A stretch of 64,000 nucleotides of DNA, from NCBI RefSeq assembly GCF_053078305.1, contig NZ_CP166879.1. One strand, given 5' to 3'. This document shows, piece after piece, positions 54,724-64,000 of this stretch (the stretch's first letter is position 1; each line of letters opens with the position of its first letter). Made by a program: the position numbers and the translations under genes. Under the pieces are notes generated by a model, which saw nothing but the letters and a program-made list of their open reading frames with translations, made no database searches and was not told the origin of the DNA.

Positions 54724-54937
54724 TTCAATGGATTACCGTTAAATTATTTTAAAATCAGTAAGTTGTATCGAGTTTGTATGCTTTACAGTTATTAACTTAC
54801 TGTATGTTGATCCAGTGTATTTAACCTTGATAAACTCAGTCCAGCAACACAAAACCGCAACACATTGCATTTTGTCCCGTAGAAAAGACTTGTATGTGTG
54901 AGCTTGTTTTCTGCGCCTACGCAGATAAGGATTGAGA

Positions 54938-56335
54938 ATGCCGCGCACTGTAACACATAATCCGGATAGCCCCAATAATGACGATGTTTTAGCCGCATCT
55001 GAAAAATGGGACGCCTGTAAACCCCCCTATACCAGCGCACACATAAAAATCTGTGTTGCTGCCGCCAAAATCATCCTCGCAGCTTCCGGCGTGGCTCGCC
55101 GTTCCAAATACGAAAAAGAGAACTATCTCCGTATCGATTTCAGCAAAGCCGGTAAGGTTACATTTTACGCCGAGTTTCCAAAAAAGATGGGCCTCAAGGG
55201 TAAAAAGCTCGGCGAGTGGCCGGAGCTCGCTATCCAGCTGGCGCGCGAAAAAGCGCTAGGTATGGCTGACTGTGGCTTGCGGGCAGAGTCCGTACATGCA
55301 GCGCTGGAAATGTACCGGGATGACCTCAAAGCCAAAGTCGCCCGGCAGAAGCTGAGCCCGGACAGTTTCACAACCTACGGGGTGCGTATCGACCGGATTA
55401 AAGCAACGTTCGGCGAGCGTGAGGTGTTCAGCGACGTAACATACAATCGGCTAGTGGAAGTGCTGGACGAGTGGATCGCCACTCGCTCGAACAATAACGC
55501 CCTGGAGTTGTTTGCCGAGCTCCGTCGGTTCTGGAAGTTCTGCGCACCTACTCTTTGTAACGGTCGCAATGTTGCTGCCAGTCTGCCAGATGATTATGTT
55601 TCCTCCCGCGTACAGAAACCCACCCCCACACGGCTTTTTACCGATATTGAGTCAATCGCCCGGCTCTGGCTCAATGTTGCCGCCTGCACCTCTGTACACC
55701 AGAAGAATGCTGTTCGCTTCATGATCATCACCGGCGTTCGTCCGATTAATGTCCATAACCTGCGCTGGGACTACGTTCACGAGGAGACTGGCGAAATTGT
55801 TTATCCTGAAGGGGTTATCGGCATGCGAGGGGCTATGAAAACACAAAAGGCTTTCCGCCTGCCAATAACGCCGGAGATCCGGCGGATTATCGACGAGCAG
55901 AAAGCATGGCGTGATTCAGTTCCTGAGTGCAACAGGGATTATGTATTTTTGCAGCCGCGTGATCCAATGCAGCCATTTTCAAAACGATCACTGGATAAGC
56001 TAGTGAAAACATACAGCCCGGATGGGGCTGTAAAAGGATTAAAACATGATGGGACTGTTAAAGGGAAAGACGGTGCATTTAATACGATGTGCCGTAAATT
56101 CCTTAAGAGCAATGTTATTGCCTTGATGAAGGAAAGAGGCTATTCCCGATCAGACCGAAGGGAAATCAGCCTCCTTTGCCTTCACCACTCCAGCAAGTCA
56201 GATGACCCGATGGCAGAACATTACGACTTTTCTGATGAGATTTTGCAGGAAGAGATTGCGTTAAAGCGCGAAGCTTTCGAGGCTCACGAGCGGAGCATAC
56301 TTGCGCAGGTGGCATTGCTACGGCGGCGAGGTTAA
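54938..56335 (+). CDS. Putative site-specific integrase (tyrosine recombinase-like, P4-type N-terminal domain)
   Basis: About 465-aa ORF at the island edge, convergent with an AlpA-like gene; N-terminal region resembles integrase arm-binding domains; start codon uncertain (TTG at 54932 or ATG at 54938). Confidence 0.6.
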   Translation: MPRTVTHNPDSPNNDDVLAASEKWDACKPPYTSAHIKICVAAAKIILAASGVARRSKYEKENYLRIDFSKAGKVTFYAEFPKKMGLKGKKLGEWPELAIQLAREKALGMADCGLRAESVHAALEMYRDDLKAKVARQKLSPDSFTTYGVRIDRIKATFGEREVFSDVTYNRLVEVLDEWIATRSNNNALELFAELRRFWKFCAPTLCNGRNVAASLPDDYVSSRVQKPTPTRLFTDIESIARLWLNVAACTSVHQKNAVRFMIITGVRPINVHNLRWDYVHEETGEIVYPEGVIGMRGAMKTQKAFRLPITPEIRRIIDEQKAWRDSVPECNRDYVFLQPRDPMQPFSKRSLDKLVKTYSPDGAVKGLKHDGTVKGKDGAFNTMCRKFLKSNVIALMKERGYSRSDRREISLLCLHHSSKSDDPMAEHYDFSDEILQEEIALKREAFEAHERSILAQVALLRRRG

Positions 56336-56532
56336 TACCGGCTGCGACACTTTTGAATAAAAGCGTCGACATTGCGGCGCTCATAACGAACTACTTTTGC
56401 ACTGAAACGAATTGGTGCCAGGATAGCCCGATGACGATGCTTAATATTCCACTCACATAGCGTTTTCTGTGTAATACCTAACTTTTGGCATACTTCATCC
56501 GGGGTGAGTAAATCGTCGGGTTTCTCGCTCAT
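56332..56532 (-). CDS. AlpA/excisionase-family small DNA-binding protein
   Basis: 66-aa ORF LLTPDEVCQKLGITQKTLCEWN with HTH-like pattern; overlaps the upstream helicase stop by 4 nt. Confidence 0.6.
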   Translation of the reverse strand: MSEKPDDLLTPDEVCQKLGITQKTLCEWNIKHRHRAILAPIRFSAKVVRYERRNVDAFIQKCRSRY

Positions 56533-57923
56533 GCTATACCTCTCTTTTTCATGGCATCGAGCAGGATGTCCTGCACTGTTCGTTTTGAGTTGCGCCGCTC
56601 CATCACCATTTCGTCCATAGTGTCGGCAGCAATAATGTGGTGAATAAATACCGGACGATTGTGTCCGGCTTGTATCTGCCTGGTGGGGCCGATACGTTCA
56701 ATAATTTGCTGATATTGCTCCAGGTCCCACCAGTGTGAGAAAAATACCAGTATATTTCCGCCGTCTTGCATGTTCAGGCCGTGGCCCGCGCTGGCTGGGT
56801 GTGCAAAGAGAACAGGAATCTTTCCGGAATTCCAGTCGCGCAGTGTCTGTGGATCCTGGTCGAGGTGACGACCGCGAGGGAATGCTTTAAGCAAGCGTTC
56901 AAGATCGTGTTTCCAGTGATAAGCAACCAGCACAGGTGCGCCAGCTGCTTCGGCCAGTATGCTGTCCAGCGCCTGTAGTTTGGTGTCATGCAGTTCTGAC
57001 CAACTTCCGGTGTCGTCTGTGTATACTGCGCCACTGGCGATTTGAAGACACTTCAGTGTCTTTGCCGCGGCGTTCGGTGCTTCGATGCCTTCGCCATTCA
57101 GCTCGAGGAACATTTCCTTTTCCATTTCACGATACTGCTGACGGGCCTTCGGGGGCATATCCACGCGGATTACGTTATGGATGGGGTCTTTGATATCGAA
57201 CCAGTCGGCCGCATCCAGCGAGAGGGTCACATCGGCTAACGCTCGCTGTATTTCACCCTGTGAGTGAGCAAAAGGCTCCAGTTTGGTCCAGCTCTGCCCC
57301 GGAAACTGTATCGATTTGAACCAGCGTGAGGTAAATGCGCCGTAAGTGCGCCCGAGACGTTGCCCCAGGTCCACAAACCACGATTGTCCCCACAAATCTA
57401 CCAGGCCGTTCGGTGCTGGCGTACCGGTGAGATTTATCCAGCGCCGGACATACTTGTGCGCCACTTTGCCCAGCGCCGCCGCGCGCTTACCACCACCTCG
57501 CAGCCGGAAGGATTTTAGCCGGGTGCTTTCATCTGGAATGACAGTACCGAACGGCCATCGTTCTCCCAATTCCTCAACCAGCCAGACAAGGTTATCGTAG
57601 TTGATGGTGAACACGCTCGCGTTGTTGTTCGCCAACGCTGCAGAGCGCGCTTTGGCATTACCAACAATTGGTTGTACCTCGATATTGCGCAAATGCCCCC
57701 ACTTCAGTGCTTCATCCGGCCAGGTGTTTGCTGCAACGCGTAGCGGCGCGAGGACCAGCGCGGGGCGTGTTTCTGCTCCAGCCATGAAAAGATCTTCCAG
57801 CGTGGTGAGTGTCGCTACGGTTTTACCCATCCCCATCCCTGCCCAGATGTTGCCGCGCAGAATGTCGGTTTGGTGATTGATTATGAGGTTTTGATAAAGT
57901 CGGGGGTGGAATATGTTATTCAT
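56529..57923 (-). CDS. Phage-type SNF2/DEAD-like helicase
   Basis: Walker A GMGMGKT, motif II DEST, C-terminal helicase domain; start placed at the Met of MNNIFHPRLYQ (ORF track extends to 57998). Confidence 0.8.
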   Translation of the reverse strand: MNNIFHPRLYQNLIINHQTDILRGNIWAGMGMGKTVATLTTLEDLFMAGAETRPALVLAPLRVAANTWPDEALKWGHLRNIEVQPIVGNAKARSAALANNNASVFTINYDNLVWLVEELGERWPFGTVIPDESTRLKSFRLRGGGKRAAALGKVAHKYVRRWINLTGTPAPNGLVDLWGQSWFVDLGQRLGRTYGAFTSRWFKSIQFPGQSWTKLEPFAHSQGEIQRALADVTLSLDAADWFDIKDPIHNVIRVDMPPKARQQYREMEKEMFLELNGEGIEAPNAAAKTLKCLQIASGAVYTDDTGSWSELHDTKLQALDSILAEAAGAPVLVAYHWKHDLERLLKAFPRGRHLDQDPQTLRDWNSGKIPVLFAHPASAGHGLNMQDGGNILVFFSHWWDLEQYQQIIERIGPTRQIQAGHNRPVFIHHIIAADTMDEMVMERRNSKRTVQDILLDAMKKRGIA

Positions 57924-57985
57924 TAATACACCTATGGTAGAATATGTGTCAATTCTCTCTCTATATATAACTAACGGAGGCGGGT

Positions 57986-63017: not shown

Positions 63018-63069
63018 TTATACGCCTAATCAGTAGCCCGGTGTTTAACCGGGCGTCTATGAAGTAGGG

Positions 63070-63618
63070 TTAAATTAGTGCTTCAGCATCAGCACCTTCG
63101 CTGATATCGTCGAAATCGTCAGCGCTTGCCACTCCGCCGCCAGCGAATGCATCGCCGTCTCGCAGGAACTGGACTCCGCCGAGTGAGGCATTAATGCGTT
63201 TACCGAAATTATTGTCCTGTGCCCAGATATCGATAACGGCGTTTACATAGCACCCTGCATAGGGACGTCCGTCAGCCTGAATAAGTGGCGAACGATCGCG
63301 ATCAAGAACAGCTGGGCGCGCTTTGTTAGCAGCATTCAGGAAGAAATTACCGGGGAAGCCTTCATACTCTGCTTTTTCATCACCATCATGCAGGCACAGA
63401 TTGAGTTTTTTCTCCAGCTGGTTATAAATGGGCTCCCACTTCTCTCCCCATTTTTCCTTCGCTACCTGCTTCATAGCTTTACGGATTTCTTCCAGTTGTG
63501 GGTGTTTGGGAGACATTAAAAATACTGCGGAGAAACGCGGATCGCCTTCGCCGTTTACAGTTTTAGCTTCAAACAGAGACGGGAAGGCCAGACGAACATT
63601 GTTCAGCTTCAGTTTCAT
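63070..63618 (-). CDS. DUF2815-like phage replication-module protein
   Basis: 182-aa ORF MKLKLNNVRLAFPSLFEAK... with acidic C-terminal tail; sits between a DUF2800-like gene and the polymerase as in other phages. Confidence 0.6.
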   Translation of the reverse strand: MKLKLNNVRLAFPSLFEAKTVNGEGDPRFSAVFLMSPKHPQLEEIRKAMKQVAKEKWGEKWEPIYNQLEKKLNLCLHDGDEKAEYEGFPGNFFLNAANKARPAVLDRDRSPLIQADGRPYAGCYVNAVIDIWAQDNNFGKRINASLGGVQFLRDGDAFAGGGVASADDFDDISEGADAEALI

Positions 63619-63633
63619 GGGTATTTCCTTAAA

Positions 63634-64000
63634 TCAGATGAGGTCTGCGGTTAGCGTATCGTCGGATACGTCGTCGAAATCATTTACAGGGTTGATATTG
63701 AGTGCGGGGCGTGGGTCTGACTCGGGAACGACGGTTGGTTTACCATCAGCTCGTGTTATCAGTGCCTCGACTTTTGACCAACGGCGTGGACTGGCCTTTT
63801 TGATAAGTTTTTCGGCTTTTGTGGGACTAATAAGTTTAAAGTCGAATACTTCTTCAGTTTTGTACCTGAACTGGTCCTTCAGAAGTGCGCGAGCTGCCTC
63901 TTCATCACTCCAGGCCCGGTTACCTTGTTTTCCTGTTACCAGTTTAAACCCCGGTACCGGATGTCCGGCATTGAGTTCATTGTGAACCCGGTCCCGTACT
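63634..64000 (-). CDS. C-terminal part of a DUF2800-like (PD-(D/E)xK-type) phage protein; 5-prime end lies beyond the window
   Basis: Manual translation of the minus strand gives an open frame from the window end to TGA at 63634-63636 (...GKQGNRAWSDEEAARALLKDQF...VNDFDDVSDDTLTADLI); not in the ORF track because it has no start in the window. Confidence 0.5.
   Translation of the reverse strand, partial: VRDRVHNELNAGHPVPGFKLVTGKQGNRAWSDEEAARALLKDQFRYKTEEVFDFKLISPTKAEKLIKKASPRRWSKVEALITRADGKPTVVPESDPRPALNINPVNDFDDVSDDTLTADLI

Follow-up and report, generated by a model that had tools for sequence, protein, structure and literature searches.

Positions 54676–64000 of the 64,000-nucleotide (nt) stretch analysed here (hereafter the window; contig NZ_CP166879.1 of RefSeq assembly GCF_053078305.1) hold the left 9.3 kb of a temperate phage whose tyrosine integrase has placed it in the 5′ coding end of yfhL, a ferredoxin gene. 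Three cargo slots divide the replication operon of this phage, and their contents are probably anti-phage; for this reading as a whole we estimate a probability of roughly 0.85. A preliminary description, made from the letters alone, had called the region a prophage-like island with an integrase, a regulator-type gene and a leftward replication module interleaved with AT-rich cargo, and both the open reading frames (ORFs) and their family matches agree with it. The same description held that the gene order follows the Escherichia coli K-12 map as far as yfhL and that yfhH is the next gene there. The series recO-pdxJ-acpS-ohsC/shoB-yfhL is indeed present in the window, and in K-12 MG1655 yfhL and yfhH are neighbours, 55 bp apart, with integrase and phage genes absent. 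The window between 44001 and 54800 is 99.0% identical to E. coli O55:H7 CB9615 and 98.3% identical to K-12, which identifies it as E. coli chromosome. A band of 4,700 E. coli genomes at 90–95% identity comes from a short yfhL match that includes the replaced 5′ end; a non-E. coli origin, considered on account of this band, was ruled out by the 98–99% identity of the host flank to E. coli.

The features at the junction are as follows.

54463–54723, minus strand: yfhL, 4Fe-4S ferredoxin gene, chimeric, with codons 11–86 from the host and codons 1–10 from the phage
54676–54693: core of the left attachment site (attL), TTCACACATATCACAATT, 18 bp, within yfhL codons 11–16; the crossover region
54694–54937: phage arm of attL, comprising the replacement yfhL 5′ end (54694–54723), new DNA upstream of yfhL and the region upstream of the integrase gene
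54938–56335, plus strand: tyrosine integrase, 465 residues (PF00589, 1.2e-6; phrog_1 integrase, 5e-26)

The left junction had been set at 54724, at the yfhL start codon. Alignment with K-12 moves it inside yfhL, to the 18-bp core: when the window, K-12 and the O55:H7 lysogen are aligned, the window is nearly identical to K-12 to the left of the core and diverges sharply directly to its right. Of the two kinds of target that had been envisaged, intergenic DNA therefore drops out and a protein-coding gene, at its 5′ coding end, stands. The expectation that no tRNA or tmRNA gene lies at the junction was borne out, as ARAGORN found none in 50000–64000, and the sole match in an Rfam scan was the host small RNA ohsC at 53789–53865. 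Together with shoB (54188–54268, an 81-nt ORF on the plus strand), this RNA (minus strand, Rfam 103 bits) makes up a type I toxin-antitoxin system of the host. The system lies between acpS and yfhL, where K-12 has it too, and was missing from the earlier gene list.

The core encodes N-C-D-M-C-E, the first cysteine cluster of the ferredoxin. Single copies are present in the window and in the empty K-12 site, and the O55:H7 CB9615 prophage has one at either end, 41.5 kb apart (position 20277 in our locus L001 and 11142 in L003). The right end of that prophage reads ...TGATTTCACACATATCACAATTGATGCATTTTTTAGTGATTAACAGCGCCAT and then yfhH, which is the second copy of the core joined to the first ten yfhL codons of the K-12 type; the yfhL 5′ end of that type is GATGCATTTTTTAGTGATTAACA. 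No second copy of the core was found within the window, which stops at 64000.

The window YfhL is identical to that of K-12 at 83 of 86 residues. At the nucleotide level the two genes differ at 10 positions in the first 30 nt and at four in the next 231 nt, and the changes in codons 1–10 comprise five that are synonymous and two that are conservative (A2S and K8R). Upstream of the gene, 27 of 120 positions match K-12, a level that marks the DNA as unrelated, while the same DNA is identical in O55:H7 lysogens. A promoter-like TCGATA-17-AATAAT lies here on the minus strand (54771–54743), upstream of yfhL, as a consensus match only. Because the phage arm brings diverged codons 1–10 and upstream DNA, the lysogen retains full-length yfhL. 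The alignments thus show, at the level of sequence, a site-specific integration within an 18-bp core common to phage and host, with the yfhL ORF reconstituted. Synonymous changes of this kind suggest that the yfhL codons carried by the phage have long been kept functional, and in the lysogen the gene would be transcribed from phage-supplied signals. Between 54640 and 54960, a search for arm-type integrase-binding repeats gave merely short repeats at chance level. The yfhL site has been described before: a 2013 survey of prophage sites listed the gene as 'disrupted' (PMC3603311), and Shiga toxin (Stx) prophages at yfhL have been reported (PMC10675304). Contrary to the former entry, yfhL is rebuilt, judging from its reading frame.

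Of 5,426 complete E. coli genomes, 159 carry integrase plus arm (54694–56335), in every case as one chromosomal copy, and the integrase match overlaps yfhL in 40 of the 40 records listed. The integrase is absent from the other 5,267 complete genomes, and K-12 lacks both integrase and replication genes, in line with the earlier remark that the island was not to be expected from the K-12 map. Prophages at the yfhL site in IAI1, O55:H7 CB9615 and O103:H2 12009, together with the Stx prophages of STEC1590 and others, have in common the integrase (97.5–99.6% nt identity), the 18-bp core, the rebuilt yfhL and the early-left backbone. STEC1590, whose prophage carries the same integrase and backbone, belongs to the strains of the study in which Stx prophages at this site were described (PMC10675304). 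In O55:H7 CB9615 a 97.8%-identical element lies between yfhL and yfhH, 41.5 kb from core to core. Its early genes run on to a LexA-type repressor, a Cro-like helix-turn-helix (HTH) protein, a VapE primase-helicase and Q, and its late genes encode holin, endolysin, terminase, portal, head, DUF3383/DUF3277 sheath- or tube-type proteins, baseplate, tail fibres and an invertase; it is a complete myovirus-type prophage. Because relatives that share its integrase and backbone span 41.5 kb and possess complete late genes, we infer that the element in this strain, too, is a full prophage of a known type and not a satellite. The preliminary description had left both options open, and it is the first that the closest complete relative supports; relatives with this integrase and backbone do not fit the satellite pattern of 10–15 kb without capsid, tail or lysis genes of its own. 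Since the site is published and the element occurs in reference strains (IAI1, O55:H7 CB9615), finding a prophage at yfhL is in itself ordinary.

The genes, slots and cargo of the replication operon are listed here from left to right.

56332–56532, minus strand: small HTH protein, 66 residues (phrog_4745, 4e-27; excisionase PHROGs 66 and 1553; HTH_17 PF12728, 5.8e-5)
56529–57923, minus strand: SNF2-family helicase (phrog_62 DNA helicase, 4e-154; annotated as SNF2-related or DEAD/DEAH in relatives)
57924–58795: slot S1, between SNF2 and VRR-NUC; 0–2,056 bp across loci, 41 content types in 86 loci, median GC content 0.39
57986–58783, plus strand, opposite to the operon: S1 cargo, multi-pass membrane protein of 265 residues, about 32% GC
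58796–59083, minus strand: VRR-NUC/PD-(D/E)XK nuclease (phrog_93 endonuclease, 1e-29; annotated as VRR-NUC in relatives)
59084–60277: slot S2, between VRR-NUC and PolA; 218–1,825 bp across loci, 42 content types in 86 loci, median GC 0.50
59126–59677, minus strand, as the operon: S2 cargo, YfbU-domain protein of 183 residues (PF03887, 6.3e-21), 5 bp after the gene for the 169-residue protein
59683–60192, minus strand, as the operon: S2 cargo, all-helical protein of 169 residues, first gene of the pair (GC content of the pair about 35%)
60278–62341, minus strand: family-A DNA polymerase (PolA), 687 residues (phrog_17, 6e-127)
62342–63069: slot S3, between PolA and SSB; 88–2,559 bp across loci, 23 content types in 81 loci, median GC 0.40
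62388–63017, plus strand, opposite to the operon: S3 cargo, membrane protein of 209 residues, about 28% GC (phrog_10579, function unassigned)
63070–63618, minus strand: gp2.5-like single-stranded DNA (ssDNA)-binding/annealing protein (SSB, DUF2815; phrog_112, 6e-57)
63634–64000, minus strand: 3′ end of a DUF2800 (PD-(D/E)XK exonuclease-like) gene, with 121 open codons and its stop at 63634, cut at the window end and syntenic with the DUF2800 gene of relatives

The interleaving of AT-rich cargo that had been noticed at the outset is plain in the base composition, with a GC content of 0.28–0.35 at 58000–58800, 59200–60000 and 62400–63000 against 0.51–0.58 in the flanking replication genes. We compared the slots across 86 loci, namely 80 IMG/VR loci with a PolA at least 86% identical, the window and five annotated genomes. 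The order SSB-PolA-VRR-NUC-SNF2 is kept in all 86, and the backbone has a GC content of 0.55, compared with slot medians of 0.39, 0.50 and 0.40. Between the window and loci with other contents, homology breaks at 63070 and 62341 for S3, at 60282 and 59077 for S2, and at 58825 and about 57900–57918 for S1. Because these breakpoints coincide with the ends of the flanking genes, cargo is swapped in units of an entire gap between genes, presumably through recombination within the conserved genes on either side. The 393 slot ORFs of at least 60 residues fall into 96 protein clusters, 95 of which are restricted to one slot. The combination of slot contents in the window differs from that of the other yfhL-site prophages: it occurs in none of the 5,426 complete genomes, where the best match covers 90%. 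Its S1 is as in the JNEC-KY175 group (at least 99%), the IAI1-type version being at 94%, and its S2 is as in O55:H7.

When representative slot proteins were run through PADLOC, four strong defence or candidate genes emerged. PDC-S35 (TIR) was found in S2 (1.6e-109; 22 loci), BstA and PDC-S42 in S1 (3e-110 in 10 loci and 6e-40 in five loci, respectively), and PDC-S25 (SIR2-like) in S3 (4e-158); one or more of the four were present in 37 of the 86 loci. Further slot matches were to cytosine and other methyltransferases, PAPS-reductase-like enzymes and an HNH homing endonuclease. In their content and their exchange, the slots resemble hotspots for defence or 'moron' genes in prophages. The P2/P4 prophages reportedly have such defence hotspots, as Rousset and colleagues are said to have described in 2022. 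The cI-N region of lambdoid phages is cited as another (PMC8585504). The likeness to these prophage hotspots lies in conserved flanks around AT-rich cargo that is replaceable wholesale and includes known defence genes; unlike P2/P4 and cI-N, the present phages have three separate slots inside a replication operon, each with a repertoire of its own. We found no prior description of these slots as a defence hotspot in the literature, which is a weak negative given that coverage was incomplete.

Two further observations concern S1. In E. coli EL361 and nine further loci, BstA lies in this slot between VRR-NUC/Dcm genes and SNF2, on the opposite strand and about 8 kb from repressor-type genes, whereas Owen et al. 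(2021) found the repressor-adjacent position of BstA to be strikingly conserved. In six loci, unrelated S1 genes on the operon strand (Dcm, other methyltransferases and a PAPS-reductase-like enzyme) share the C-terminus ...DLI, and the codons that close them, TATGACCTCATCTAA, overlap the start of SNF2, ATGACCTCATCTAAA. We had considered this C-terminus as a docking motif of same-strand slot proteins and rejected it, since it is mostly a DNA-level effect of the TATGACCTCATCTAA/ATGACCTCATCTAAA overlap; the overlap looks like a fixed translational-coupling junction that different cargo genes reuse.

The cargo of S2 is a two-gene module. In the 183-residue protein the PF03887 match spans residues 1–171, and YfbU structures in the PDB (4lr3/1wpb) are matched at 1.3e-5. 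Promoter-like ATGACA-16-TATCAT at 60255–60228 on the minus strand, a consensus match at 10 of 12 positions, would serve the pair. This exact S2 cargo occurs in just four of the 5,426 genomes. By sequence search the 169-residue family is very rare, with seven clusters; the YfbU clade is widely distributed, its clusters numbering more than 260 and coming from Enterobacterales, Vibrio, Pseudomonas, Alcanivorax, Psychrobacter and others. In every context examined of the clade of 183–188 residues, an ORF of 149–171 residues without a Pfam match stands directly before the YfbU gene. Such contexts, of at least six kinds in addition to that of the window, include Morganella, where the pair has icd on one side and a lambdoid prophage end on the other; an integrative island from a metagenome, next to AAA_23/MC2/CTD6 genes; a Citrobacter-type element that shares the backbone of the window; three different neighbourhoods in Vibrio, with a 171-residue partner; Pseudomonas aeruginosa; a conjugative transfer region of Lonsdalea, between TraU and TraC; and an IncFII conjugative plasmid of Raoultella. 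The partner proteins align with the window's 169-residue protein at 19–84% identity with 10 invariant columns, and are homologous. The one exception is a more distant YfbU-family gene on a Xanthomonas plasmid (35% identical, 240 residues), which has no such partner. As far as comparison of genes and neighbourhoods can show it, the two genes form a conserved, mobile module. The Vibrio neighbourhoods consist of short same-strand ORFs with small gaps and tiny ORFs of 30 residues, and look like chromosomal integron cassette arrays.

A precedent for the function of such a gene comes from Kamadhenu, a lactococcal plasmid abortive-infection system consisting of a 180-residue YfbU-domain protein, for which activity has been shown experimentally and escape mutants map to a phage ssDNA-annealing protein (PMC11381338, PMC13064643). 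The likeness, drawn from the description of Kamadhenu and not from a sequence alignment, lies in a full-length YfbU domain, in size (180 versus 183 residues) and in location on a mobile element. Kamadhenu is a single gene, however, whereas the YfbU gene of the window is paired with a helical partner of about 170 residues that is homologous from one context to the next. By analogy, the YfbU pair is probably a Kamadhenu-like abortive-infection module.

The cargo of S1 and S3 is of a different kind. The S1 protein had no match in the copy of Pfam searched, in PHROG or in PADLOC, and its homologues amount to just seven clusters in 5.8 billion. Some of these homologues (P0009–P0014) are labelled PF27470 'TfpB', a family to which the searched Pfam copy gave no match for the window protein; in the literature 'TfpB' returned unrelated uses alone (type IVb pili, a PilB-like ATPase and chemistry). 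Within the 86 loci the family forms five clusters of less than 35% mutual identity in 16 loci, on the opposite strand in every case. Its alignment has invariant G221, C223, F230 and C256, and an AlphaFold2 model (mean predicted local distance difference test, pLDDT, 77.6) shows long transmembrane helices and a small C-terminal β-domain. A member 62% identical to the window protein, again on the opposite strand, is found in a lambdoid prophage of Enterobacter hormaechei (L097–L099) between dinI and replication genes of the lambda-P/DnaT type; because this lambdoid prophage carries a member, the family is one that transfers between unrelated phage backbones. The S3 cargo occurs in 66 of the 5,426 genomes, and its family comprises three clusters in 21–22 loci and 10 representative clusters among 1.84 billion proteins. 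Hydropathy predicts four hydrophobic segments and a basic loop of 89 residues, and a promoter-like site, a consensus match, lies just upstream of the gene on the plus strand (62335–62364). Both membrane proteins would be expressed in the lysogen and act at the envelope, in superinfection exclusion or abortive infection.

These elements can be assembled into a mechanism. The tyrosine integrase inserts the phage at the 18-bp core in yfhL, the phage arm restoring the start of the gene, and slot contents are swapped whole, presumably by recombination in the flanking conserved operon genes. The cargo would most likely protect the lysogen from other phages, with the opposite-strand membrane proteins of S1 and S3 working by superinfection exclusion or abortive infection and the YfbU pair as a Kamadhenu-like abortive-infection module. 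In its most specific form, to which we give odds somewhat short of even, the proposal is that the YfbU pair is a widespread, mobile two-component anti-phage (abortive-infection) system of Gram-negative bacteria, a counterpart of Kamadhenu, placed in one of three previously undescribed defence slots of APSE/BPP-1-type phage replication operons, and that the narrowly distributed, fast-diverging S1 (PF27470-type) and S3 (phrog_10579-type) families are superinfection-exclusion or abortive-infection proteins.

Several points weigh against reading the window as an intact phage with anti-phage cargo. The four cargo proteins of the window have no PADLOC match. Fold searches were uninformative as to function: the S1 model had no PDB match at E ≤ 0.001, its AFDB50 matches being uncharacterised proteins across many phyla, and the 169-residue protein matched generic four-helix bundles. 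Slot genes also include Rha/Bro-N/Ant-type regulators, Arc, ANR, an HNH homing endonuclease and DNA-modification enzymes; because such non-defence genes are present too, residence in a slot is by itself no proof of defence. The promoter calls are all consensus matches; 20 such sites were counted in the region, where 15.2 ± 4.1 would be expected. The YfbU pair lies on the operon strand, so it could serve the lytic cycle of the phage. The window stops at 64000, before the right attachment site (attR), the repressor and the structural genes, and the element could be truncated or defective here. Lastly, no sequenced virion was found, and the three 'phage' entries in GenBank that share this backbone represent predicted prophage regions. 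We had considered these records (vB_EcoM-606R2, 689R2 and 611R5) as proof of a virion and set them aside: 606R2 starts in host tadA, pgpC and yfhH and stops at SNF2 without an integrase gene. GenBank entry ON470579.1 (vB_EcoM-606R2) is a mis-delimited prophage prediction, and ON470582 and ON470588 give the same match pattern.

The strand of the YfbU pair bears on an alternative account in which the AT-rich cargo serves the phage and not the lysogen, as anti-defence, host-takeover or replication accessory genes in lytic growth. The pair points the same way as the early operon. Other slot genes on the operon strand, seen in relatives, encode DNA methyltransferases and PAPS-reductase-like enzymes, typical anti-restriction functions, and some of them are translationally coupled to the SNF2 gene. 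Such a role is harder to square with S1 and S3 genes on the opposite strand, the latter with a promoter-like site of its own, or with the 10/12 promoter-like site of the YfbU pair. The pair is also known from a conjugative plasmid, a conjugative transfer region, cassette-like arrays and, outside any replication operon, the end of a prophage. With known defence genes in the same slots and a YfbU-domain protein, Kamadhenu, proven to protect its host (PMC11381338), we regard service to the phage as a serious but somewhat unlikely explanation of the cargo.

A compact two-gene operon with a gap of 3–15 bp on plasmids, in a transfer region and in cassette-like arrays, where toxin-antitoxin systems abound, would also fit a toxin-antitoxin or addiction module whose role is to stabilise mobile elements and not to resist phages. 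The YfbU-family gene of the Xanthomonas plasmid adjoins RelE/ParE, and chromosomal YfbU has been linked to cell death (PMC11381338, PMC13064643). Against this, the pair had no match to known toxin-antitoxin families in any library searched, and the precedent for YfbU on a mobile element is phage defence (Kamadhenu, PMC11381338). Toxin-antitoxin activity and abortive infection can moreover coincide, and the two are not mutually exclusive; an addiction module without an anti-phage role is, in our estimate, unlikely. That this strain retains a defective prophage remnant, or a satellite-type island of small size, with the integrase and replication arm alone, as the merely 9.3 kb in view, a Citrobacter-type contig of the same backbone with a fragmentary SNF2 gene beside MksEF, and a remnant near uvrC with a truncated SSB gene might suggest, is very unlikely given that the eight fully visible backbone ORFs are intact, with 96–100% protein identity to complete 41.5-kb prophages, and that the module has no satellite hallmarks and its relatives carry full virion genes.

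The replication module that frames the slots reaches well beyond E. coli. In tblastn searches, PolA is 74% identical to that of Yersinia YeP4-6, 68% to that of Bordetella BPP-1 and 61–65% to that of Hamiltonella APSE. The gene order of APSE-2 corresponds to that of the window element and its relatives: int, xis, SNF2, [P42, P43, G], VRR-NUC, PolA, [I, tRNA-Lys, P49], SSB, DUF2800-type exonuclease, P53, repressor, VapE-type helicase and Q. The early-left replication module is thus common to the window element, APSE (Sendosyvirus), BPP-1 and YeP4-6. The virion genes differ, being of the myovirus type in the E. coli relatives (DUF3383/DUF3277 sheath or tube type, baseplate J), whereas APSE-2 has a tail needle and spike and no sheath or tube genes. 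Because the module is common and the virion genes are not, the E. coli element is a mosaic that falls outside the Sendosyvirus and BPP-1-like genera. The integration sites also differ, tRNA-Arg in APSE and yfhL here. The toxin cassette of APSE lies between Q and lysis, outside the slot positions, which ruled out an equation of the slots with that cassette.

Of the smaller genes, the one that had been called an 'AlpA-like' regulator is indeed a small HTH gene: it matches HTH_17 and excisionase PHROGs, with no AlpA family among its Pfam matches, and its 66-residue product is probably an excisionase or a regulator. The integrase gene and this convergent gene overlap by 4 bp at their 3′ ends (56332–56335), as do the HTH and SNF2 genes (56529–56532, 4 bp), and the tight packing is found in all relatives. 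Similar acidic tails, DFDD[IV]S...[AD]LI, end the SSB (...DDFDDISEGADAEALI) and the DUF2800 nuclease (...NDFDDVSDDTLTADLI). In T7, the acidic C-terminal tails of gp2.5 and gp4 dock on the polymerase; by analogy, the tail of SSB and DUF2800 may be a common docking peptide. In several APSE genomes (records NC_000935.1 and NC_011551.1) the PolA match comes in two pieces, and the APSE-1 features there are 'DNA polymerase' and 'HNH endonuclease'. In one enterobacterial locus an HNH homing endonuclease lies in S2 beside PolA.

Beyond the prophage itself, the attachment core, the rebuilt yfhL, the three-slot architecture and the YfbU module add modest, testable leads. The attachment core is now exact, and the rebuilt yfhL corrects the scoring of this site in prophage surveys; rebuilding of the gene explains how a conserved ferredoxin gene tolerates the phage. 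The slots provide testable defence candidates, namely the YfbU two-gene module and two uncharacterised membrane-protein families, and would allow new defence genes of Enterobacteriaceae to be picked out cheaply through 'guilt by position'.

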